Below are positions 63-11,313 of a DNA stretch of 11,597 nucleotides, piece by piece. The DNA comes from a virus: the UHGV virus genome UHGV-0331195; one strand, written 5' to 3'. The notes below the pieces were generated by a model. The model was not told the origin of the DNA. It searched no databases and saw nothing but the letters and a program-made list of their open reading frames with translations. The number at the start of each line of letters is the position of its first letter. Position 1 is the stretch's first letter. The position numbers were made by a program, and so were the translations under genes.

Positions 63-139
63 CGGCACGTAGCGCAGCCTGGTAGCGCACCGTCATGGGG
101 TGTCGGGGGTCGGAGGTTCAAATCCTCTCGTGCCGACCA
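63..139 (+). tRNA. proL: tRNA-Pro, anticodon GGG
   Basis: 77-nt cloverleaf: acceptor stem CGGCACG/CGTGCCG, D-arm GCGC-AGCCTGGTA-GCGC, anticodon loop ATGGGGT (GGG), T-arm GGAGG-TTCAAAT-CCTCT, 3' CCA encoded. Matches my recollection of enterobacterial proL. Confidence 0.9.
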
Positions 140-316: not shown

Positions 317-347
317 ACCCTGTTTTTTCGTGTGGAATCATAGACAT

Positions 348-1589
348 ATGGCGAGAAAAACACACCCATTAACCACAGTGCAGATCAAAGCAGCCAGACC
401 AGCGCAAAAGGAGTACACCCTGCAGGACGGCGGAGGGCTTTTTCTCCTGGTCAAACCGTCTGGATCAAAACTCTGGAGATTTTCCTACTACCGACCATCG
501 GACAAAAAAAGAATATTGCTGAGTTTTGGATCGCTTGAAGATGTTTCCCTGGCTGATGCCAGAAAACGCCGTAGCGAGTACAGGACGTTAATCAGTGCCG
601 GAACTGACCCGCAGGACCACGAGAGGCAAAAAAGAGAGACAGAGGCCCGAAGACAAGGGAACACGTTCGAAAATGTGGCGGCGGCATGGTACCAGGTGAA
701 AATCAGCCAGAATCTGGCCCCCAACACGATTAAAGACATCTGGCGTTCGCTGGATAAATATGTATTCCCGTTCATCGGCAACACGCCAATAGATACCCTC
801 ACCGCCCGAAGGTTCGTTGAAGTGCTTACCCCCATCAAGGAGCGCGGCAACCTGGAAACACTCAAGCGGGTTTTACAGCGCGTTAATGAGGTAATGGATT
901 ACGCCGCCAACAGTGGGCTGATTGATGCCAATCCGGCTATGAATGTGCGTAAGGCGTTTCCCTCACCTGTAAAAAAACATATGCCAACAATCCGCCCCGA
1001 ACAGCTGCCGGAGCTTATGCAGGCTTTATCAGTATCGGCAACAGAACGGCAGACCAGATTACTGATTGAATGGCAGTTACTGACCGTAACCCGTCCCGCC
1101 GAAGCGTCATCAACGCGGTGGGATGAAATCAACCTGGACGCGAAGCAATGGACGATACCTGCCGGACGCATGAAGATGCGCAGGGATCACGTTATCCCGC
1201 TTTCCGGTCAGGCTATGGCGGTGCTGGAGGCCATGAAACCAATCAGCCACCACCGCAATTACGTTTTCCCAAGTCTGAAAGACCCACAGCAGCCGATGAA
1301 CAGCCAGACAGCTAACGCAGCATTGCGGCGTATGGGATTCGCTGGCGTGCTGGTGTCTCATGGATTACGCGCCATATTCAGCACAGCAGCGAACGAGGAA
1401 GGATTCGAGCCGGACGTAATAGAGGCGGCACTTGCCCACGTCGACACCAACGAAGTTAGACGGGCATACAACCGGAGCAACTATATAGAAAAACGCATCG
1501 TGCTGATGCGCTGGTGGGGCGAATTTGTCGAGGCTGCGGCGACGGGCGTAACCCTCGCCAGTGGTAAAAGGGGTATCCGAGCCGTGTAG
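348..1589 (+). CDS. int: Tyrosine-type site-specific integrase, P4/CP4-57 family
   Basis: ORF 330-1589; start chosen at ATG 348 (MARKTHPLT...). N-terminus (PLTTVQIKAARP...YTLQDGGGLFLLVKPSGSKLWRFSYY) matches the arm-binding domain signature I recall for P4-type integrases; C-terminus has HGLR and RAYNRSNY catalytic-region motifs. Adjacent to a tRNA. Confidence 0.85.
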   Translation: MARKTHPLTTVQIKAARPAQKEYTLQDGGGLFLLVKPSGSKLWRFSYYRPSDKKRILLSFGSLEDVSLADARKRRSEYRTLISAGTDPQDHERQKRETEARRQGNTFENVAAAWYQVKISQNLAPNTIKDIWRSLDKYVFPFIGNTPIDTLTARRFVEVLTPIKERGNLETLKRVLQRVNEVMDYAANSGLIDANPAMNVRKAFPSPVKKHMPTIRPEQLPELMQALSVSATERQTRLLIEWQLLTVTRPAEASSTRWDEINLDAKQWTIPAGRMKMRRDHVIPLSGQAMAVLEAMKPISHHRNYVFPSLKDPQQPMNSQTANAALRRMGFAGVLVSHGLRAIFSTAANEEGFEPDVIEAALAHVDTNEVRRAYNRSNYIEKRIVLMRWWGEFVEAAATGVTLASGKRGIRAV

Positions 1590-2085: not shown

Positions 2086-2292
2086 ATGGAAGCAATCAGA
2101 AAAATTATCTTTCGCCAGGAAGTAAAAAAAATTATCCACATCAAGGCAGACAGCACGCTGCAAAGCATGATCAACGCCGGAGAATTTCCGCAGGGTTTTC
2201 GCGTTGGTTTACGCCGTCGCGGATGGTATGAGGATGATGTGTTGTCCTGGCAGAAAGAACGCGAAGAGGAAGCACGCGGAACGGCTGCTTAA
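2086..2292 (+). CDS. alpA: AlpA-family phage transcriptional regulator
   Basis: 68 aa; ...RQEVKKIIHIKADSTLQSMINAGEFPQGFRVGLRRRGWYEDDVLSW fits the AlpA pattern as I recall it (R..EV...ST.....G.FP...G.R..W.E..V..W). Same orientation as int, as in Gram-negative PICIs. Confidence 0.7.
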   Translation: MEAIRKIIFRQEVKKIIHIKADSTLQSMINAGEFPQGFRVGLRRRGWYEDDVLSWQKEREEEARGTAA

Positions 2293-2952: not shown

Positions 2953-3045
2953 CCTTTATTAAGGTAATCGATGAAAAGACAAAGCCCCGCAAGTGTCGTT
3001 ACCACTCGCAGGGCTTCTAACCAACAACGTAAACTAGGAGCCGTT

Positions 3046-3603
3046 ATGGTTGCTGTAAATCATATACCACACCTTGTACACACACAAACGGCCTTTGTGT
3101 GGCGTTTTCTGGCCCTGAATATCGGAGAAAAAAACCGCTTGATCGCCACCAGCAAAAATGGCTATGATTCCCGCGCACCTCATAAAACGGGTGTCGGGAT
3201 TAGCCTCCTGAAAACAACTGAAGCGCACAGCACGCGCCCCGCGTGTTTTTTTGTGCCGCATAGTCACACCTTATCAATGGTGGGCTGTACGGGGGCGGAG
3301 CAATCCGCGCCGGTTTCTTCAGTGTCCGGTAAGGCTAACCCTGTACAGTCCGCCACCAGCGAAATTAGCCTTTTGCGTGGCGGTTATCTTAACCACACTG
3401 AGGAGGCTGCCAACATGGCTACTATCCCTACCCTTGTACATTCTCAAACCGCATTTATCTGGCGCTTTATCATCTTTGGCGCGTCAGAATCTCAAATCAT
3501 CCACGTAACCGCCTGGACGGAACGCGAAGCGCGTAGCCGTTGCCCGTCCGGTTGTATTGCGGTATTCGCCGCCCGTATTCGTCAGGGGGTGTGCCATGCC
3601 TGA
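3046..3603 (+). CDS. Icd-like (host cell-division inhibitor family) ORF with in-frame tandem duplication; start uncertain (2971, 3046 or 3415)
   Basis: Single frame 2971-3603 with no stop. AGGAG RBS before ATG 3046. N-terminal motif LVHTQTAFVWRF recurs as LVHSQTAFIWRF at the second copy; degenerate TEAHSTRPAC versus TEREARSRCP. Confidence 0.4.
   Translation: MVAVNHIPHLVHTQTAFVWRFLALNIGEKNRLIATSKNGYDSRAPHKTGVGISLLKTTEAHSTRPACFFVPHSHTLSMVGCTGAEQSAPVSSVSGKANPVQSATSEISLLRGGYLNHTEEAANMATIPTLVHSQTAFIWRFIIFGASESQIIHVTAWTEREARSRCPSGCIAVFAARIRQGVCHA
3415..3603 (+). CDS. Icd-like protein, second and better conserved copy, 62 aa
   Basis: Strong SD GAGGAGG (3400-3406) before ATG 3415. MATIPTLVHSQTAFIWRFIIFGAS...TEREARSRCP...FAARIRQGVCHA fits my recollection of Icd-like small proteins in P4-like/PICI elements. 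Confidence 0.5.
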   Translation: MATIPTLVHSQTAFIWRFIIFGASESQIIHVTAWTEREARSRCPSGCIAVFAARIRQGVCHA

Positions 3604-3922: not shown

Positions 3923-4222
3923 ATGAGAACGTATTTATCTGGCTTTACTGCCAGCGGCCCCGCTCGGCCTGAAATCCGCCCCGGAGATATTTTCAGAGAT
4001 AACTACGGTGGCGTTGTTGAGATTAAAGGCGTGGCAGAACGGCGCATTACCTACCGCCGTGAAGGCTACGAATATGATTGCGTGATGCCTGTTTATCAGT
4101 TCCGGCGTGATTTTTCTCTGGTACAGGCAGCGCCCCGCAGTAAACCAACCAGCAGGGAGAAAGCACGCGCCAATATTCAGGAAATAAGAAAGATGTTGAA
4201 TGTATTCAGGGGTAAAAAATGA
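3923..4222 (+). CDS. Small protein, possible DUF4222 family
   Basis: 99 aa; PGDIFRDNYGGVVEIKGVAERRITYRREGYEYDC resembles the DUF4222 pattern I recall from P4-like prophages. Stop overlaps the primase start (ATGA). Confidence 0.45.
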   Translation: MRTYLSGFTASGPARPEIRPGDIFRDNYGGVVEIKGVAERRITYRREGYEYDCVMPVYQFRRDFSLVQAAPRSKPTSREKARANIQEIRKMLNVFRGKK

Positions 4223-5967
4223 AACTGGCACCGAACGTAAAAAAACAGCCACGCGGAATAAAACACAAAGACACAGAGGTAATTATCTTTGCGGGTAGTG
4301 ATGCCTGGTCACACGCGGAACAATGGCAGGAGCAGGATGGCCCCGCATCCGGCGATAATGTGCCGCCTGTGTGGCTTGGGCCAAATCAGCTTGCCGAACT
4401 TGATGCACTGAAAATTGTTCCGGATGGAAAAAAACGCGTAAGGCTGTACCAGGCCGGAGAACTGGATTTGGTGGAGACCAAAAAGATTGGTCAGAAGCTG
4501 GCGGCGGCAGATATTCAGGACGCAAATTTTTACCCCGAAGGAATGCACGTCCAGAAGTGTGAAAACTGGCGGCGCTATCTGAATGCTGAGCGTGAAAATA
4601 TTGCCGCAGGGCTTACCATGCCGGAGCAGAAAAATACGCAACTGGCACAAATGGCAGACAGTGAGCGCGCGCAGCTGCTTGCCGAGCGCTTTGATGGCGT
4701 TTGTGTACATCCGGAAAGTGAAATCGTTCACGTATGGCGCGGCGGGGTATGGTGTCCGATCAGCACAATGGAGCTGAGCCGCGAAATGGTGGCGATCTAT
4801 TCAGAGCACAGGGCCACTTTCAGCAAACGCGTGATCAATAACGCCGTTGAAGCGTTAAAAGTTATTGCCGAACCAATGGGGGAGCCGTCCGGCGATTTGC
4901 TGCCGTTCGCCAATGGTGCGCTTGACCTGAAAACGGGGGAATTTTCCCCGCACACGCCGGAGAACTGGATCACCACGCACAACGGCATTGAGTACACGCC
5001 ACCAGCACCTGGGGAGAACATCCGCGATAACGCGCCAAACTTTCATAAATGGCTTGATCACGCAGCCGGAAAAGACCAGCGCAAGATGATGCGTATATGT
5101 GCCGCGCTGTACATGATTATGGCGAACCGGTACGACTGGCAGATGTTTATTGAGGCCACCGGAGACGGCGGGAGCGGTAAAAGTACATTCACACACATCG
5201 CCAGCCTTCTGGCAGGGAAACAGAACACGGTAAGCGCTGAAATGACATCGCTTGATGATGCTGGTGGACGTGCGCAGGTTGTCGGGAGTCGTCTTATCGT
5301 CCTGGCTGACCAGACGAAATATACAGGCGAAGGAACGGGCATCAAGAAAATCACGGGCGGCGACCCCGTGGAAATTAACCCGAAATACGAAAAGCGTTTC
5401 ACGGCTGTAATCAGGGCGGTGGTGCTGGCGACCAACAATAACCCGATGATATTCACCGAACGGGCCGGAGGTGTGGCACGTCGTCGCGTGATTTTCCGCT
5501 TCGACAATATCGTCAGTGAGGCCGAAAAAGACAGGGAGCTACCGGAAAAGATTGCGGCTGAAATCCCTGTCATTATCCGCCGATTGCTGGCGAACTTTAC
5601 CGACCCTGAGAAGGCACGGGCTTTACTACTGGAACAGCGTGACGGTGATGAAGCACTGGCAATAAAGCAACAGACGGATCCGGTTATTGAGTTTTGCCAG
5701 TTCCTGAATTTTCTGGAGGAAGCGCGCGGCCTGATGATGGGTGGCGGTGGCGATTCAGTGAAGTACACGACCAGAAACAGCCTTTACCGCGTCTATCTGG
5801 CGTTTATGGCATACGCAGGCAGGAGCAAACCGCTAAACGTAAATGACTTTGGCAAGGCTATGAAGCCAGCCGCGAAAGTTTACGGACATGAATATATTAC
5901 GCGGAAAGTTAAGGGAGTAACGCAGACTAACGCAATAACAACAGACGATTGCGACGCGTTTTTATAA
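4219..5967 (+). CDS. Replication protein: P4-alpha-like primase / SF3 helicase
   Basis: 582 aa; Walker A GDGGSGKST (aa 315-323, nt 5161-5187) and Walker B-like RLIVLAD, consistent with the phage/plasmid primase P4-family C-terminal domain. Followed by an iteron origin. Confidence 0.75.
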   Translation: MKLAPNVKKQPRGIKHKDTEVIIFAGSDAWSHAEQWQEQDGPASGDNVPPVWLGPNQLAELDALKIVPDGKKRVRLYQAGELDLVETKKIGQKLAAADIQDANFYPEGMHVQKCENWRRYLNAERENIAAGLTMPEQKNTQLAQMADSERAQLLAERFDGVCVHPESEIVHVWRGGVWCPISTMELSREMVAIYSEHRATFSKRVINNAVEALKVIAEPMGEPSGDLLPFANGALDLKTGEFSPHTPENWITTHNGIEYTPPAPGENIRDNAPNFHKWLDHAAGKDQRKMMRICAALYMIMANRYDWQMFIEATGDGGSGKSTFTHIASLLAGKQNTVSAEMTSLDDAGGRAQVVGSRLIVLADQTKYTGEGTGIKKITGGDPVEINPKYEKRFTAVIRAVVLATNNNPMIFTERAGGVARRRVIFRFDNIVSEAEKDRELPEKIAAEIPVIIRRLLANFTDPEKARALLLEQRDGDEALAIKQQTDPVIEFCQFLNFLEEARGLMMGGGGDSVKYTTRNSLYRVYLAFMAYAGRSKPLNVNDFGKAMKPAAKVYGHEYITRKVKGVTQTNAITTDDCDAFL

Positions 5968-5982
5968 TTTTTTGCAATGGCT

Positions 5983-6207
5983 GTCTACCCTGTCTACCTG
6001 AGTAAAGAAAAATACATTTAATTCAGTATATTAACTTAGGTAGACAGCCTTTTTTCACTGTCTACCTACTATCTACCCTCTCTACCTGATTTTACCTGAA
6101 TCAGACAGGGAGGTAGATACGGGGTAGATAGTGGATAAAAGCACTCTACCCCGCTGAAAGCCGCGCCATTACTGGCATGAGAGCCAGTAAGGTAGATAAG
6201 GTAGACA
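5983..6207. repeat. Origin of replication: iteron cluster with at least 12 copies of (T)GTCTACC / GGTAGA(C/T)A in both orientations around an AT-rich spacer (6001-6038)
   Basis: Direct copies at 5983-5990, 5991-5998, 6059-6066, 6071-6077, 6082-6088, 6144-6150; inverted copies at 6039-6046, 6113-6120, 6123-6130, 6191-6198, 6200-6207. Resembles P4 ori/crr octamer iterons bound by alpha. Confidence 0.7.
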
Positions 6208-6255: not shown

Positions 6256-6519
6256 ATGCGCACATCAGGAAAACTTAATAATCAGAAGAAGCAGCATAAC
6301 CGCGCCATTGACCTTACAGAGCACTGGCTGAGAGTGGCGATAAAAATCATCGACCGCAACACGGGGGAAGGATACGCGAAAGCACATCCCGAACTGATAA
6401 GCGCATTCATGACCACGGCGGCGGCAAACTTTGCCACGCTGACAGAACGGGAGATTGCCGAAGCGGAACAGGTAACAACCATCAACGTAAAAACCGGAGA
6501 GTCAGGCGATGATACATGA
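6256..6519 (+). CDS. Hypothetical protein, 87 aa
   Basis: ORF with GAGGGGG upstream; stop overlaps the next gene's start. Confidence 0.45.
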   Translation: MRTSGKLNNQKKQHNRAIDLTEHWLRVAIKIIDRNTGEGYAKAHPELISAFMTTAAANFATLTEREIAEAEQVTTINVKTGESGDDT

Positions 6520-6781
6520 CCGCATAGCGGAGGAACTCGAGGCGAAAGGATTTTACCGGAGGGCGGCGGCGCGATGGGGTGAAGTCATGCAGCTGGTGGA
6601 GACAGACAAGGAACGGCATCAGGTTACGATGCGACGGCTGGAATGTTCCAGGAAGGCACAGAGGCCACCGGAGCCGCCGGATAACTTCGGAGACCTGAGA
6701 AAGGCAGTCGATCGCACTTATGCTGAAATGGGTATAGATGGTGTAAGCGATGAAATATGGCGTAATTACCCAGGCAGCTAA
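6509..6781 (+). CDS. PerC-like transcriptional regulator (tentative)
   Basis: 90 aa; N-terminus IAEELEAKGFYRRAAARWGEVM resembles the PerC-family signature as I recall it. Translationally coupled to the upstream ORF. Confidence 0.45.
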   Translation: MIHDRIAEELEAKGFYRRAAARWGEVMQLVETDKERHQVTMRRLECSRKAQRPPEPPDNFGDLRKAVDRTYAEMGIDGVSDEIWRNYPGS

Positions 6782-6787
6782 TCAACA

Positions 6788-6809
6788 GCCGGAGTAATCC
6801 GGCTTTTTT
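6788..6809 (+). terminator. Rho-independent terminator GCCGGAGtaaTCCGGC then T6
   Basis: Hairpin plus TTTTTT. Nearly identical to the terminator at 9064-9086. Confidence 0.65.
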
Positions 6810-6821
6810 GTACCCAAAAAA

Positions 6822-6858
6822 AGCCCGATAAGTACAGGAGGCATCTTATCGGGCTTTT
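6822..6858. terminator. Second, bidirectional terminator (AGCCCGATAAG...CTTATCGGGCT flanked by A-run and T-run)
   Basis: 11-bp stem hairpin with A7 upstream and T4 downstream; insulates the early/replication region from the head operon. Confidence 0.6.
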
Positions 6859-6891
6859 GCATATGAGGTTTTTTTTGGTGCACTGACACAC

Positions 6892-6990
6892 ATGATCGGG
6901 ATCATCATTTCATAATTTGCAACACAACTCAACATCATTGCATAAAATGCAATCATGATTATAATCATAACTGGATGAACATCCAGTTAT
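6892..6990 (+). promoter_or_regulatory. Head-operon control region: consensus -10 TATAAT (6959-6964) with TTGCAT -35 candidate (6938-6943), plus four palindromes
   Basis: Palindromes ATGATC-GG-GATCAT (6892-6905), TTGCAT-AAA-ATGCAA (6938-6952), ATGATTATAATCAT (6955-6968), ATAACTGGATG-AA-CATCCAGTTAT (6967-6990); the last sits at the expected transcription start. Confidence 0.5.
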
Positions 6991-7021
6991 GATTTTTTAA
7001 GTCAAAGAGGAATTTCTTACT

Positions 7022-7228
7022 ATGGCTGAAGAGAAAAAAGGCGGTGTTTCGGTGTACATAAGCCCCGACATCGTGAAGGCGCTCAAGGAACGCCACCAGC
7101 AGAACGTAAAAGCAGGCATTGCGGCAGGACTTGATCCGCTGGCGATGGTTGAGCCGTCAACAGGCTGGCAGGTACGCGCCTATTTACGCGCGGCGCTGGG
7201 TATGAATCAGGTTCACGGGGGTGAATAA
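7022..7228 (+). CDS. Small hypothetical protein, first gene of head operon
   Basis: 68 aa, RBS AAGAGGAA, stop overlaps the capsid gene start (TAATG). No similarity to lambda gpW, which has the same length, that I can see. Confidence 0.5.
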   Translation: MAEEKKGGVSVYISPDIVKALKERHQQNVKAGIAAGLDPLAMVEPSTGWQVRAYLRAALGMNQVHGGE

Positions 7229-8283
7229 TGACAGTAAAAGCAATAGCACTTAACACTAACCAGCTTTTTGCGTACCTGAATCGCGAGGATATTGCGGAAT
7301 TTAAATTCAGTCCGCTGTTTACCGCGCTGTTTTTCCCGAACGTGGCGACATTCAACACACAGGACATCATGTTAGATAACCTGGATATTGAAGAAGTCAC
7401 TATGTCGGCGTTTTGTTCGCCTATGGTGGGTAGCCAGGTTCAGCGCGATAAAGGGTACGAAACAAGCATTATTCGCCCTGGCTACACGAAGCCAAAACAC
7501 GAAATCGATCCATTAAAAACAATAATGCGCATGGCTGGAGAAGATCCAGCACAGCTTAACGACCCTACCTACCGCCGTATGCGCCTGATTACTGGCAACA
7601 TGCGCCGCCAGATAAACGCCATTAAAGCGCGCGTGGAATGGCTGGCGGTAAATGCGGTAACGACCGGAAAAAACATCATTGAGGGCGAAGGCATAGAGCG
7701 CTATGAAATCGACTGGAAGATACCGGAAAAAAACATCATAGAGCAGGCCGACGGTAAAAAATGGTCAGAGCAGGACAAAGACATACACGACCCAATCTAT
7801 GACATTGAGCTATACGCAGATCAGGCAGGTTGCCCCGCAAACGTCATGATTATGGGCGTTGATGTATGGCGCATGTTACGCAGCTTTAAAAAATTCCGTG
7901 AACTGTACGATCTCTCCCGTGGTTCAGAATCCGCCGCAGAGCTGGCATGTAAAAACCTGGGCGAAGTGGTGAGCTTTAAAGGCTATCTTGGTGATCTGGC
8001 CCTTATCGTCTATTCCGGCAAATACACTGACAGCGACGGCACAGAAAAATATTTCCTTGAGCCTGATTTGCTGGTCCTGGGCAACACCAACAATAAAGGG
8101 CTGGTGGCCTATGGTGCGATTATGGAACAGGAAGCGGTAAGAACGGGCGCAACGCAAAACATGTTTTACCCGAAAAACTGGATTGAGGACGGCGATCCGG
8201 CGATTGAGTACGTGCAGACGCACAGCGCACCGCAGCCGGTTCCGGCAGATATTCGCAAATTTGTTACCGTCAAAATTGGTTAA
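7228..8283 (+). CDS. Major capsid protein, phage lambda gpE family (divergent)
   Basis: 351 aa. Shares with recalled lambda gpE: FKF(S/D)PLF...LFF, (T/R)PGY(V/T)KPKHE, EDP..L.DP.YRR.R.I..NMR, WS..DK...DP..DIE.YA, RSFK, RGS.S, LG..VS(F/Y)KG..GD.A.(I/V)VYSG.Y, LVLGNT...GL..YG, .YPKNW...GDPA.E, SAP. Estimated 35-45% identity. Confidence 0.85.
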   Translation: MTVKAIALNTNQLFAYLNREDIAEFKFSPLFTALFFPNVATFNTQDIMLDNLDIEEVTMSAFCSPMVGSQVQRDKGYETSIIRPGYTKPKHEIDPLKTIMRMAGEDPAQLNDPTYRRMRLITGNMRRQINAIKARVEWLAVNAVTTGKNIIEGEGIERYEIDWKIPEKNIIEQADGKKWSEQDKDIHDPIYDIELYADQAGCPANVMIMGVDVWRMLRSFKKFRELYDLSRGSESAAELACKNLGEVVSFKGYLGDLALIVYSGKYTDSDGTEKYFLEPDLLVLGNTNNKGLVAYGAIMEQEAVRTGATQNMFYPKNWIEDGDPAIEYVQTHSAPQPVPADIRKFVTVKIG

Positions 8284-8295
8284 CGGGGGGATTCT

Positions 8296-8631
8296 ATGGA
8301 CACTCCATACATTGAGTTATTTGCAGGCAGTCAGCAGGTATCCACGACGCTGGTACATTTTGCCGCTGATGCTGGCGTTATTCAGGAATTTACCCCGCTG
8401 ATGCTGGCGGACAATGGCGAGTTTAAGCCGTGGGATGGTCAGGAATCTGGCAAGGCTGTTTATCTGACTTCGTACCCCGTGGACACGTCAAAGCAGAAAT
8501 CAGCACAGTGTTACAAGACGGGGATATTTAATATCGCCGCCGTAAACTGGCCTGAGAGCGCCGACACTGACGCGAAAAAATGCGCCGCCTTTGCGGGTTC
8601 TGGCGTATCCGTTCAGCCGCTGGCGCGATAA
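8296..8631 (+). CDS. Head decoration protein, lambda gpD family (divergent)
   Basis: 111 aa; TPLMLADNGEFKPWDG...YKTGIFN...VNWPESADTDAKKCAAFAG...SV parallels recalled gpD (TPLMLD...WDG...YKSGTF...VLWPEA..DETKKRTAFAG...SI). Gene order E then D is the reverse of lambda. Confidence 0.7.
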   Translation: MDTPYIELFAGSQQVSTTLVHFAADAGVIQEFTPLMLADNGEFKPWDGQESGKAVYLTSYPVDTSKQKSAQCYKTGIFNIAAVNWPESADTDAKKCAAFAGSGVSVQPLAR

Positions 8632-8643
8632 GCAGGGGAAACG

Positions 8644-9057
8644 ATGGCAACGAATGAAAGCATCATGGCGCTACCGCTGGCGAGTAAATTTAAAGCAGAA
8701 GCGCGGGCAATGGCTGACAGAGGTTTATCAACCTACGAGGCCGTATATCAACTCAACAAACTGGAAGAACAGGACAAGCCGCGCGCTGATGCGATTATGG
8801 CGCTTCATGAACATAACGACTATCAGCCGCTGTTACGTGCAATGGCAAACGTGCCATGTATTAGCGTCGATAATGCTCGTGAAATCCTGAACATGACCAT
8901 AGAGCAGGAGCGCCCAAAGGTTGCACCAGAGCTTACCGCAGCCTTTGAAAACTTTATGGACATGCACAGCCCGCAAGCCGTATCAGCTGGCATGGCGTAC
9001 GATGGCAGAAACCAGGGCGATGACGGCGACATCGATCGCATACTGAAAACCATCTGA
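8644..9057 (+). CDS. Hypothetical head-module protein, 137 aa, acidic C-terminus
   Basis: RBS GGGGA 5 nt upstream. No convincing similarity to lambda FI/FII/W from memory. Confidence 0.5.
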   Translation: MATNESIMALPLASKFKAEARAMADRGLSTYEAVYQLNKLEEQDKPRADAIMALHEHNDYQPLLRAMANVPCISVDNAREILNMTIEQERPKVAPELTAAFENFMDMHSPQAVSAGMAYDGRNQGDDGDIDRILKTI

Positions 9058-9063
9058 GACAAG

Positions 9064-9086
9064 GCCGGAGAAATCCGGCTTTTTTT
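9064..9086 (+). terminator. Rho-independent terminator GCCGGAGaaaTCCGGC then T7, immediately before cosQ
   Basis: Hairpin plus TTTTTTT; 22 of 23 nt identical to the terminator at 6788-6809. Confidence 0.65.
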
Positions 9087-9088
9087 AC

Positions 9089-9262
9089 GGGTCCTTTCCG
9101 GCATATGGACCCGTTACGGGGCGGCGACCTCGCGGTTTTTCGCTATTTATGAGCCTTTTCAGGGGGGTGGTGGTGGTTTTGTTGTTTGATCTATCTTTAT
9201 GAATGAAAAGGGAAAGATGCAAGCAATACACCAACCTGAAGCAGTAATTAAGTTGGTGTATT
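9089..9262 (+). other. cos site 1 (lambda-type): cosQ-like GGGTCCTTTCCGG (9089-9101), cosN 12-nt cohesive-end sequence GGGCGGCGACCT (9119-9130), divergent cosB region with hairpin AATACACCAAC/GTTGGTGTATT (9225-9262)
   Basis: CGTTACG|GGGCGGCGACCTCGCGG-TTTTCGCTATTTATGA matches my memory of the lambda right-end/left-end junction for about 35 nt, then diverges with no CGTTTCC-type R elements. Sits directly upstream of the Nu1-like gene, as in lambda. Confidence 0.75.
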
Positions 9263-9263
9263 A

Positions 9264-9806
9264 ATGAAATCTCATCTGATGAACAAAAAAAACATGGCGA
9301 AAAGCTGCCGTGTAAGTGCGACAGCGTTCGACAAGTGGGGAGTAACTCCCGTTGAGCGTAAAGGCCGTGAGGCGTTTTATGATGTTGCCAGCGTGATAGA
9401 AAATAGGGTTAACAATGCAATTAGCCAGCTTATAAACGACAAAGGCGAGATTGACGATGATGAACTTTTACGAGTCAGGATCAGATTACTGACAGCACAG
9501 GCAGAGGCGCAGGAACTTAAAAACGATCGCGATCGCGGTGACGTGATTGATACTGAGTTTTGCCTGTACGCGCTTTCAAAGCTGGCGAGTCAGATTTCAT
9601 CAATCATGGACAGCCTCCCGCTTACTATGCAAAGGAGCTTCCCACAGATTACCCCCGCCATGCTGGATAGGCTTAAAAGGGAAGTGGTTAAAGCCTGTAA
9701 TGCCAGTGCCAGAGTTGCCGACAACCTCCCACAGATACTGGCTGATTACTTGAAAGAAACAACCGGAAACGTACCGGAAAAGTTGCTACAGAAGAAAGGC
9801 GAGTAA
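9264..9806 (+). CDS. Terminase small subunit, lambda gpNu1 family; start uncertain (9264, 9279 or 9294)
   Basis: C-terminal two-thirds LLTAQAEAQELKNDRDRGDVIDTEFCLYALSKLASQISSIMDSLPLTMQRSFPQI...LDRLKREVVKACN closely parallels recalled Nu1 (LTRAQADAQELKNARDSAEVVETAFCTFVLSRIAGEIASILDGLPLSVQRRFPEL...FLKRDIIKAMN). N-terminal DNA-binding region is much more divergent. Confidence 0.8.
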   Translation: MKSHLMNKKNMAKSCRVSATAFDKWGVTPVERKGREAFYDVASVIENRVNNAISQLINDKGEIDDDELLRVRIRLLTAQAEAQELKNDRDRGDVIDTEFCLYALSKLASQISSIMDSLPLTMQRSFPQITPAMLDRLKREVVKACNASARVADNLPQILADYLKETTGNVPEKLLQKKGE

Positions 9807-9824
9807 CAGACGCGCAATTATTGA

Positions 9825-10030
9825 ACAAAACTGAGAAACGACATGAAAGCGTCATAAATCGCCATTTTAGATGATTACCGTGTCGTTTCTTTTTATTGTG
9901 TATCTATTTAAAAACAAATAGTTATGTTCGAGAAGTACCGACATGCTTTTTCCAGAAAAATTTTCATAAACAGATAAAAACCGCGAGGTCGCCGCCCCGT
10001 AACGGGCCATAATTCCAGGAAGGACCCGAC
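9825..10030 (-). other. cos site 2, inverted: cosQ-like (9998-10030), cosN GGGCGGCGACCT on minus strand (9986-9997), lambda-like cosB with R-type elements GAAACGACA (9835-9843) / TGTCGTTTC (9882-9890)
   Basis: The reverse complement of 9825-10030 aligns with the recalled lambda left end over about 170 nt (cosN, TTTATGAAAATTTT, CTTCT.G.ACATAACT..TGTTTTTA..TA, AAAAAGAAACGACA, TGTCGTTTC). 31 nt around cosN are identical to cos site 1 in inverted orientation. cosB abuts the terS stop tail-to-tail. Confidence 0.7.
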
Positions 10031-10061
10031 GACACCAGACTATCAGAACGATGGGGGCACA

Positions 10062-10343
10062 ATGACAGAAGCCGAAATACTGGGATTAATCCGCCGCGTT
10101 GCCGGAATCAGCCAGCAGGTTGACGAACAGGCCACGCAGCCGGACAGCGTGACCGCTGAAAATTATGCGCGTGTTGTTGCGGAGGTGATGCGCCGTGATG
10201 GTATAGAACTTAATGGCGTGGATATGCGCAACATACGAACCAGAGTTCTTGAGTTGCTGGCCTACCGTCGCCGCGTGGAGATGTATCGGGAGAAGGAGAA
10301 AATAACGTACCACTGGAAGAAGCCGGAGCGGTTGCGGCGGTAA
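10062..10343 (+). CDS. Hypothetical protein, 93 aa
   Basis: ORF with GGGGG 5 nt upstream of ATG; Arg-rich C-terminus. No family recognised. Confidence 0.45.
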   Translation: MTEAEILGLIRRVAGISQQVDEQATQPDSVTAENYARVVAEVMRRDGIELNGVDMRNIRTRVLELLAYRRRVEMYREKEKITYHWKKPERLRR

Positions 10344-10903
10344 CTGGTTGATATTCCCGACGGACCAAAAATGGGTGGCTACATCCCTCGCTTCTGAGGA
10401 CTGTTAACAAGCTGCCTGAAAGACAGTCACAAACTACGAAATTTTCGCAGTTTAATTAATGATCAGCTTAATCGCTAACCCGCTGATATTTTCGGAAACC
10501 TCAATTTGAGGAAGTCGGCGCGGTAACTCGCTGAACTTTAAGCAAAGCGCAAAATTGCGCTTGCTGAATAATCATTATGATTACGCAGATGATTAAGGAA
10601 TGACCGAAGGCGGAAATTCGCCTGTGGTTAATGGGGGAGTTGCAGATCTGCAACTCGACCATGAAACTACGGAAACTACCCGTAGTTTGGGTAGTAAGAG
10701 TAACACCCAGATTTTGGGGCTTACTCGTGATACCCAAATTTGGGGTATCGGTGGCAACCATAACGACTTTCGTTACGGTTGATGCTTTTACCCCATTGGT
10801 GGAGGCTGGGCGGCCTGCTGTGGGCTTTTCCACCATTGGTGGAAAGGTGCAGATCTGGATCATCATTACGGTGATCAAGGGTATGTAAAACCCACCAGCC
10901 TGA

Positions 10904-11146
10904 TTAACAGTTAACCGGAAAAAAAATCCGGCATGGGGGGGAGTGGTTAGCCACGAACAACGAATAAGCTGGACACCGCGCCCCCTCTCACGCAGAGAAA
11001 AAATTACCGTTTCGTAGTAGTTAACATGTTAACTGCCTGATGAAGCGTTGTTGTTGATTTTTTCTTTATGATTCATCTGGTTGCGTGCAAAAAATGTTAA
11101 CTACCTTTTTGGTAAAAATGTTAACAGGGCAGCGGTTAACATTAAC
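10904..11146. repeat. Cluster of GTTAAC-containing palindromes and direct repeats: TTAACAGTTAAC (10904-10915), AGTTAACATGTTAACT (11019-11034), AAAATGTTAAC x2 (11091-11102, 11114-11125), GGTTAA-CA-TTAACC (11133-11146)
   Basis: Seen in sequence. No ORF of convincing quality in this region. Candidate protein-binding array, function unknown. Confidence 0.4.
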
Positions 11147-11290
11147 CAGGCGTAAATCCCGATATGGTGATCCCCATATCGGGGAACATCCACCAGCTTA
11201 AAAACGAATGAGCGAAAAAAATCCAGGTAGAATTATGGAAGTCGCTAGGGCAATCGCCGTTTAAATTGTGTATTTTTTCAGCAAATTATT

Positions 11291-11313
11291 TTAGTTATAC
11301 GTTTGGTTATACG
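11291..11313. repeat. Integrase arm-type sites near attR: TTAGTTATACG (11291-11301) and TTGGTTATACG (11303-11313)
   Basis: Same 11-mer as at 262-284, about 60 bp from the attR core. Confidence 0.55.

Follow-up and report, generated by a model that had tools for sequence, protein, structure and literature searches.

How are capsid and packaging genes switched on in a satellite island? The question is raised here by a short region (6892-6990) which is rich in palindromes and precedes such genes. The window, i.e. the whole stretch of 11,597 nt that was analysed, is an EcCICFT073-type Gram-negative phage-inducible chromosomal island (PICI) of E. coli. This assignment is based on the gene layout, on the match to CFT073 (93% identity across the promoter region), and on the fact that the region 6780-7030 is always chromosomal in the complete E. 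coli genomes that carry it (234 in a near search, 619 in a distant search). The genes int and alpA lie beside a tRNA at the left end, the primase-ori module is unidirectional, and the late zone contains few phage head genes together with cos. Tail and lysis genes are absent, and the size is in the range of ~10-15 kb. The succession of int-alpA, immunity, replication and late zones is as described (PMC6092414, PMC10111431), and the four-zone PICI layout of PMC10111431 agrees with the window. The features are compiled in Table 1.

Table 1. Features of the 11,597-nt window, with a focus on the region upstream of the late operon. Positions given as -n are relative to the predicted transcription start.
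Feature	Position	Strand	Basis or remark
tRNA-Pro	63-139		
Tyrosine integrase gene	330-1589		
alpA-like gene	2086-2292		
C4 and isrK immunity-type RNAs	3175-3360		
DUF4222 and D5-type primase	3923-5967		
phrog_1231 gene and perC	6256-6781		
perC-family gene	6509-6781	+	Closes the upstream (replication-zone) transcription unit; Pfam PF06069, E=7.8e-45
Terminator 1, intrinsic, AGCCGGAGTAATCCGGCT and T6	6787-6810 (hairpin 6787-6804, then T-run)	+	Terminator scan, inverted repeat
Terminator 2, hairpin with 14-bp arms AAAAGCCCGATAAG / CTTATCGGGCTTTT	6819-6858 (6819-6832 / 6845-6858)		Inverted repeat, 100% complementary, TTTT at end
Palindrome ATGATCGGGATCAT	6892-6905		
Dyad O1 TTTCATAATTTGCAA	6908-6922		~-64 to -50 (centre ~-57); operator-like, conserved
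Dyad O2 TTGCATAAAATGCAA	6938-6952		~-34 to -20 (centre ~-27); imperfect 11-bp arms span 6933-6957
Palindrome ATGATTATAATCAT around -10 TATAAT (6960-6965)	6955-6968		
Perfect inverted repeat with 15-bp arms, embedding the predicted LexA box	6963-6994	+	Followed by T-run 6993-6998; terminator-like
LexA SOS box (predicted) AACTGGATGAACATCCAGTT	6969-6988		PWM score, conservation
Conserved leader and ribosome-binding site (AAGTCAAAGAGGAAT...)	6999-7021	+	Kept in all five lineages, with or without hairpin/box
Late operon, start codon 7022	7022-10343	+	Pfam and PHROG matches, exact cosN matches
68-aa protein gene, first of late operon	7022-7228	+	
Lambda E-like capsid (capsid E-like) gene	7228-8283	+	
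gpD-like decoration gene	8296-8631	+	
137-aa protein gene	8644-9057	+	
cosN, exact lambda-type	9119-9130	+	
TerS-like gene, 180 aa	9264-9806	+	
cosN, inverted, exact lambda-type	9986-9997	-	
93-aa protein gene	10062-10343	+	
Palindrome TAATCATTATGATTA	10569-10583		In right-end spacer cassette 10517-10612

The first-pass annotation had read 6892-6990 as the promoter region of the head operon, located behind two terminators. The analysis supports this assignment to the head/packaging operon of a satellite island, which encodes capsid E-like, gpD-like and TerS-like proteins, and both terminators were found. The second one is preceded by an A-run and followed by a T-run and thus looks bidirectional. 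Its place is taken in an island from Pluralibacter by a different, G+C-rich hairpin (GCCCGCT...AGCGGGC) with a T-run.

All four palindromes that had been listed are present, and a consensus TATAAT is indeed embedded in one of them (ATGATTATAATCAT). Shuffles of the 121 bp contain on average 0.25 perfect palindromes (arm of at least 6, spacer of at most 4), as compared to 6 calls (4 distinct) that were observed (P~0.0005). The palindrome for which 11-bp arms had been reported (6967-6990) exists but is really a perfect inverted repeat with 15-bp arms (6963-6977 / 6980-6994), an arm length which was reached by no shuffle of the same 121 bp.

The candidate core promoter, of the sigma-70 type, combines TATAAT as -10 with a -35 TTGCAT (6938-6943) across a spacer of 16 bp, and the predicted transcription start is at ~6972. 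A promoter scan of the window did not call any promoter at 6892-6990 because the -35 hexamer agrees with TTGACA at only three of six positions. We infer the promoter from its sequence and its conservation across lineages. A TAWAAT hexamer is found 16 bp after the TTGCAy of dyad O2 (see below) in five lineages, and a leader of the form T-run-GTCAAAGAGGAAT is common to five lineages. No homologue of the promoter was detected among the 50,697 records of a phage database.

Conservation within the main lineage was analysed with 80 IMG/VR loci which have a close capsid relative and which resulted in 49 distinct promoter variants, the window included. More distant islands (Salmonella, Pluralibacter, metagenomes) were reached via homologues of the 68-aa first gene of the late operon. 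Searches of genome contigs with the capsid protein or a capsid alignment were discarded, as they returned nothing or only relatives at 43-45% which lack this promoter. In an island with a relative of the Pluralibacter capsid (L093), the upstream region is unrelated.

The elements of the region differ strongly in their conservation. The -10 TATAAT is changed in 1 of 49 variants, and the outer pairs of the surrounding ATGATTATAATCAT are palindromic in 31 of them; in Salmonella, this palindrome is lost (GTGGTTTATAATCAGG). An apparent covariation of its outer pair (Fisher P=0.027, no phylogeny correction) was too weak to be used. The upstream palindrome ATGATCGGGATCAT is broken in 39/49 variants, where C6903 is replaced by A (GATAAT), and the whole block is replaced in divergent relatives. 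It is probably lineage-specific and non-functional. A motif search across related islands, as had been suggested in the first-pass annotation, gave a divided picture: two dyads (O1 and O2) and, though not in all lineages, a LexA-type box are kept, while the ATGATCGGGATCAT and -10 palindromes are often broken.

The largest palindrome matches a LexA SOS box. Its 16-mer core CTGGATGAACATCCAG (6971-6986) has the structure CTG-N10-CAG with flanks AA/TT. The Gammaproteobacteria-type consensus is a 16-bp dyad CTG-N10-CAG, usually inside TACTG(TA)5CAGTA (PMC3009722). A position weight matrix (PWM) was built from the 18 E. coli SOS boxes in Table 4 of that paper. The box at 6969-6988 scores 20.2 bits, which is close to the leave-one-out median of the published boxes (20.1 bits, range 6.6-27.6). 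It is the top-scoring site in the window, and not one of 300 random 11.6-kb windows with the same composition reached 20 bits. The box begins 4 bp past TATAAT and covers the predicted start. The transcription start is the usual location of LexA operators. The arms CTGGAT...ATCCAG and their spacing are shared with the ruvA (CGCTGGATATCTATCCAGCA) and cho (CACTGGATAGATAACCAGCA) boxes, which are likewise 20-bp dyads with PWM scores in the same range (PMC3009722, Table 4). Unlike such chromosomal CTGG...CCAG boxes, that of the window is on a mobile satellite, has a less A/T-rich centre (GAAC), and is inside the longer 15-bp-arm palindrome.

Within the main lineage, none of the 49 variants departs from CTGGAT (6971-6976) or from the CAG triplet (6984-6986), and variation in the ATCCAG half is restricted to 6983. 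Inside the box, two changes recur, 6977 G>A and 6983 C>A, both towards the consensus; besides these, there are single variants at 6978/6979. The box is retained by 79 of the 80 IMG/VR loci (16.8-22.5 bits), and in the remaining one a 1-bp insertion destroys the spacing. In CFT073, box and hairpin are identical to those of the window. The pattern used for a metagenome scan stopped at TATAATCA and was thus blind to the box; all 34 PICI-type promoters obtained in this way have the box (16.1-21.6 bits), with no new box variants among them. The other 18 matches of that scan lack box and leader and are chance-like (one was inspected). Conservation in the main lineage carries limited weight because of its low diversity (81-99% identity).

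Evidence across genera comes from two further lineages. The Salmonella box GACTGGATAAATATCCAGAT has 18.1 bits and an unchanged position, and the Pluralibacter box AACTGGATGTTTGTCCAGTT has 17.7 bits and lies ~12 bp further downstream. In both, the arms and spacing of CTG-N10-CAG are kept while centre and flanks differ. In each island having the box, it is the sole high-scoring LexA site in that locus. The box has no counterpart in two lineages, namely L094 and an E. coli lineage (L081-L083 and others; best score 1.9 bits) whose upstream gene is ssb instead of perC. Because these lineages are without the box and yet keep the promoter and O1/O2, LexA control is not essential to the late operon. 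Predicted LexA control is thus widespread in this PICI family but not universal. A second LexA-like box of the same island (1588-1607) is conserved in relatives, which hints that LexA may touch the island twice, there and at the late promoter.

The dyads O1 and O2, conserved across genera, had not been singled out by the first-pass annotation. They have the common form TTkCAy-N3-rTGmAA (15 bp with a free 3-bp centre), which is kept in five lineages; within the window, this pattern occurs only at these two places (0.15 expected). The left half of O2 is the -35 hexamer itself, so that O2 overlaps both the -35 and the spacer, and O1 is three helical turns upstream of it. The distance between O1 and O2 is constant across five lineages (30-32 bp). 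O1 is the most conserved block of the main lineage, with 1 of 15 columns varying among the 49 variants, and its core is kept in Salmonella (TTTCATATTATGAAA), Pluralibacter (TTTCATTAAATGCAA) and L094 (TTGCACTTTATGCAA). The Salmonella O1 and the Pluralibacter O2 (TTGCATTAAATGCAA) are perfect palindromes. O1 and O2 are probably sites for a dimeric DNA-binding protein, which may repress or activate.

Several attempts were made to find the protein that reads these dyads. NsrR was dismissed, as its half-sites (ATGCAT) are differently spaced and no site in the island is among the listed CFT073 ChIP-seq sites. Viral contigs were scanned for ATTGCATNNNATGCAAT and for pairs of TTGCA-N5-TGCAA sites separated by 5-30 bp, but the matches were mostly due to chance or were 9-bp coding tandem repeats. 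In an unrelated prophage (L327), dyads of the TTGCATGAGATGCAA type flank an Xre-type repressor gene. This gives no link to enterobacterial helpers because that repressor is without match in the phage database.

A candidate from the island itself is the 68-aa product of the first late gene, which might be a ribbon-helix-helix-type autoregulator acting on O1/O2; this would not conflict with the LexA box. No other small protein is encoded in all five lineages; this one always adjoins O1/O2, and its N-terminus (GGVSVYISPDI, then a helix) resembles a strand-helix-helix layout. However, tests for the ribbon-helix-helix family and fold were negative or without clear match, and general family and fold searches with the 68-aa product also returned no match. 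We consider this assignment unlikely. If the 68-aa product does read O1/O2, it could represent a new DNA-binding family.

Instead of, or besides, being a LexA operator, the 15-bp-arm repeat with its T-run may be viewed at the RNA level, either as a third terminator against upstream read-through or, where it is fully transcribed, as a leader attenuator that depends on AlpA or a helper Q protein for antitermination. A terminator scan does call the hairpin (14-bp stem and T-run), its predicted fold is stable (-24.5 kcal/mol, z=-5.7), its outer AATCA/TGATT pairs hardly vary, and the pairing of 6968/6989 is restored by a few double changes. In Pluralibacter, whose box lies entirely past the -10 with T6 right behind it, the hairpin would be fully transcribed. 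In the window, however, the left arm shares positions with the -10 and the predicted start, so that transcripts from the late promoter would be without this arm. Also, the stem CTGGA...TCCAG is conserved across genera as a sequence and not via compensatory change, the spacing is exactly that of CTG-N10-CAG, and only 4 of the 14 stem pairs are G-C. Many relatives have lost pairing in the middle of the stem (6968-6970 / 6987-6989); among the 49 variants, 6968/6989 can pair in only 25 and 6970/6987 in 35. Since the outer arms are inconsistently kept and since T-run and leader persist in lineages without the hairpin, a protein site is favoured over an RNA structure, and we regard an RNA-level role as the main function of the repeat as rather improbable. 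The hairpin could stop read-through from upstream.

Still less probable is the model originally proposed for this locus, in which one island or helper regulator reads ATGAT(T/C) palindromes at the head promoter and at 10569-10583. The motif is certainly frequent. ATGATTA occurs 9 times in the window (1.75 expected), a count reached by none of 200 shuffles, and the pentamer ATGAT/ATCAT occurs 8 times in 6880-7000, where the rate of the window itself predicts 0.47 (17-fold enrichment). In the E. coli lineages, ATSAT pentamers flank O1, O2 and the -10, each time at the same positions. Of these, only the ATSATGAT that immediately precedes the -10 is also shared by Pluralibacter and L094. At the right end, the copies of the cassette have diverged from each other, but the palindrome inside them has not changed. 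Against a common reader, the Salmonella promoter has not a single ATSAT but keeps O1/O2, the -10 and the LexA box, and the upstream palindrome (6892-6905) is broken in most relatives, as described above. The four palindromes do not form one class, as the largest of them matches the LexA box, and its ATGAT-bearing outer arms are not palindromic in many relatives. Because of this match, the expected regulator is that of the host. The two sites assigned to one regulator differ in half-site order and spacing (TAATCAT-T-ATGATTA versus ATGATTA-TAATCAT), and the full-length right-end cassette is present in a minority of islands (10/83 loci), while nearly all have the head promoter. The region upstream of alpA has different repeats, which are also distinct from O1/O2, and the phage records contained no counterpart of the promoter. 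A PerC-like protein had been named among the potential partners. It is unlikely to be required, since islands without perC keep the same promoter with its O1/O2 sites, so that perC is not needed in cis. A common regulator of the head promoter and 10569-10583 is thus unsupported, and the ATGAT-type palindromes are best read as mostly lineage-specific extensions of conserved elements, not as a separate operator class. Least of all do we favour Fur boxes at the ATGAT-rich palindromes (6951-6969, 10567-10585), a reading under which both the head operon and a right-end gene would respond to iron: both sites agree with the 19-bp Fur consensus (GATAATGATAATCATTATC) at 14/19 positions, tied best in the window, and that at the right end holds ATAATCATTAT exactly, but matches of at least 14/19 occur in 24 of 100 random windows and are thus not above chance, the -10 palindrome is not conserved in Salmonella, and a biological rationale is absent.

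We thus consider it likely that 6892-6990 serves as promoter and operator for the late operon (capsid, decoration, packaging), which would be repressed by LexA and would receive a second input through O1/O2. The core of this proposal is a weak -35, a perfect -10, two terminators which insulate the late promoter from the replication/perC unit before it, and an SOS box of median quality on the predicted start. The scheme that we infer from the sequence (LexA binding, SOS inducibility, start site, and a protein on O1/O2) would operate as follows. As long as the DNA is undamaged, a LexA dimer on the box would block initiation and keep the capsid and packaging genes silent. Upon DNA damage, activated RecA would cause self-cleavage of LexA, and the late promoter would open. 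The same SOS signal would induce a lambdoid helper prophage, so that the promoter would open as helper virion parts appear. A dimeric protein on O1/O2 would modulate the promoter as a second input. For EcCICFT073, the induction of alpA was reported to be helper-dependent and not SOS-dependent (PMC6092414). LexA would for this reason be only one layer of control, and a helper that infects without triggering SOS would not derepress the operon, save through read-through or some other factor.

A more far-reaching version of this proposal can be offered only tentatively. It holds that the late promoter has two inputs, with host LexA at the start and a conserved dimeric protein on O1/O2 (the 68-aa product, or a helper or host factor), and that LexA control arose independently in Gram-negative and Gram-positive satellites, being gained or lost between sister lineages.

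The closest published relative is EcCICFT073 (PMC6092414, PMC6739421). It shares with the window the gene order, the promoter, an identical box, two cosN, perC upstream, and the homologues of capsid E/D. It differs in its fifth late-operon gene, which is rpp in CFT073 while the window has the TerS-like 180-aa gene at that place. CFT073 Rpp matches the solved RppC; the two window proteins that were tested against it (TerS-like and 93-aa) gave no match. The induction of EcCICFT073 has been described as AlpA-dependent and helper-dependent, and a LexA site at the late operon is unmentioned (PMC6092414, PMC6739421).

The operon I of SaPIs, which constitutes the packaging module in these Gram-positive prototype satellites, is under LexA control according to the account given in PMC5052747 (citing Ubeda 2007). 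Both are satellite operons for capsid remodelling, packaging and interference, with their own promoter downstream of the replication module and a site for the host SOS repressor (predicted here for the PICI). The PICI operon has capsid E, gpD and TerS-like genes (rpp in CFT073) and its own promoter behind two terminators. The differences are that the PICI box is of the Gammaproteobacteria type (CTG-N10-CAG), as expected from a Gram-negative host, while that of SaPI operon I is of the Firmicutes type, and that the gene content of the PICI operon (lambda E/D-like capsid, TerS-like or Rpp) is unrelated to that of SaPI operon I. Also, the LexA control of the PICI is predicted from sequence, and two sister lineages are without the box.

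The late promoters Psid and PLL of satellite P4 have TGT-N12-ACA sites at ~-55, which are read by the zinc-finger activators Ogr and Delta, and are devoid of a LexA box. They resemble the PICI late promoter in being satellite late morphogenetic promoters with a poor -35 and upstream dyads. Neither the TGT-N12-ACA motif of P4 nor an Ogr/Delta-type protein is present in the window.

Published work on Gram-negative PICIs explains induction by AlpA and a helper signal; the control of the capsid/packaging/Rpp operon is not addressed in the literature searched. LexA control of a satellite packaging operon is already known from SaPIs. A report of a LexA site in Gram-negative PICIs was not found in the full-text literature searched, in which subscription journals are scarcely covered. 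If the proposal is correct, PICI late genes would be coupled to the SOS response in the manner of staphylococcal SaPIs, and unrelated satellites would have arrived at a convergent logic. Helper interference by Rpp and satellite transfer would then differ between DNA-damage prophage induction and plain infection. SOS-inducing antibiotics would boost the spread of the islands, which often carry virulence regulators of the perC type and defence genes. The conservation of O1/O2 would mark a second regulator of the late promoter.

The right-end palindrome has a setting of its own. It is not a cos site, an option that was rejected because the cosN sites are at 9119 and 9986, and Rfam, searched at a permissive threshold, gave no credible match in the right end. 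In the cassette which contains it (10517-10612), a 75-bp spacer lies between two fragments copied from the 93-aa gene, first its 3' end (GCGGTAACTCGCTGA vs. GCGGTAACTGGTTGA) and, after the spacer, its 5' start (ATGACCGAAGGCG vs. ATGACAGAAGCCG). Because of this arrangement, the cassette looks like an intergenic spacer of tandem paralogues that has survived in a right end which is mosaic and unannotated. Conservation of the spacer is good, with 1-3 copies per island, but it is full-length only in the loci mentioned above. A third ATGATTA is found at 10589-10595. The spacer may contain a weak promoter (TTGCGC-16-TATGAT, 10555-10582), followed by an RBS-like TAAGGA. If so, its resemblance to the head site would be that of two -10 regions which share AATCAT...TATRAT.

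The dyads O1 and O2 upstream of the late-operon promoter, its -10 element and the leader are retained in related islands of the sister lineages L081-L083 (E. coli ssb-type) and L094, where unrelated sequence is found at the position at which the LexA box would stand. Gain or loss of the LexA box has therefore taken place among the members of this family. Dyads of the TTGCATGAGATGCAA type are also found in an unrelated IMG/VR prophage (L327), where they are located at 8571-8619 and 9292-9306, on either side of an Xre-type repressor gene. This shows that, in other phages, dyads of this kind act as operators for a repressor. The L327 repressor itself has no match in the phage database.

A second, predicted LexA-like box (AGCTGTACAGAAAACCAGTA, 16.9 bits with the LexA matrix) is located at 1588-1607 and begins within the int stop codon. 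Downstream of it are a TATAAT (1637-1642, at a distance of 30 bp) and an 83-aa ORF (1667-1918) with a terminator at its end. Relatives of just 70-76% identity retain AACTGTACAAAAAACCAGTA (19.4 bits) at the position of this box. A perfect palindrome, ACTGGCATGAGAGCCAGT, occurs at 6171-6188 in the intergenic stretch that follows the primase gene, a region presumed to hold the origin. It has the form CTG-N10-CAG, yet scores just 8.1 bits as a LexA box.

The packaging and immunity features are listed in the table below. The two cosN sites, which are oppositely oriented and bracket the TerS-like gene, have their counterparts in cos1 and cos2 of EcCICFT073. The TerS-like protein has no PDB match. 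The position of its gene is occupied in CFT073 by rpp (L295 5932-6366; 144 aa), which matches RppC (6HLK, E = 5e-31), so that a module appears to have been exchanged at the site that sets packaging specificity. The isrK and C4 RNAs are P1/P4-type immunity RNAs in the regulatory zone of the island. Because both fall within the mechanically called ORF 2971-3603, this ORF is probably not a gene.

Packaging and immunity features of the window
Feature	Coordinates	Strand	Evidence
isrK	3175-3251		Rfam match
C4 antisense RNA	3273-3360		Rfam match
cosN	9119-9130	+	exact lambda-type (GGGCGGCGACCT)
TerS-like gene (180 aa)	9264-9806		phrog_57
cosN	9986-9997	-	exact lambda-type (GGGCGGCGACCT)

The right end of the island (10344-11300, about 1 kb) carries no annotated gene in any relative and consists of short modules which are shuffled, duplicated or absent between islands. 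The spacer cassette at 10517-10612 occurs at 706 sites distributed over 518 E. coli genomes. Region 10628-10860 contains three long imperfect hairpins (arms of 19-33 nt) and recurring GCAGATCTG and CCATTGGTGGA motifs; this hairpin region has no match in Rfam. Near the island end (11017-11140) the motif (A)TGTTAAC / GTTAAC is present four to five times, in both orientations; these copies may be arm-type sites for the integrase or sites for an excision factor.
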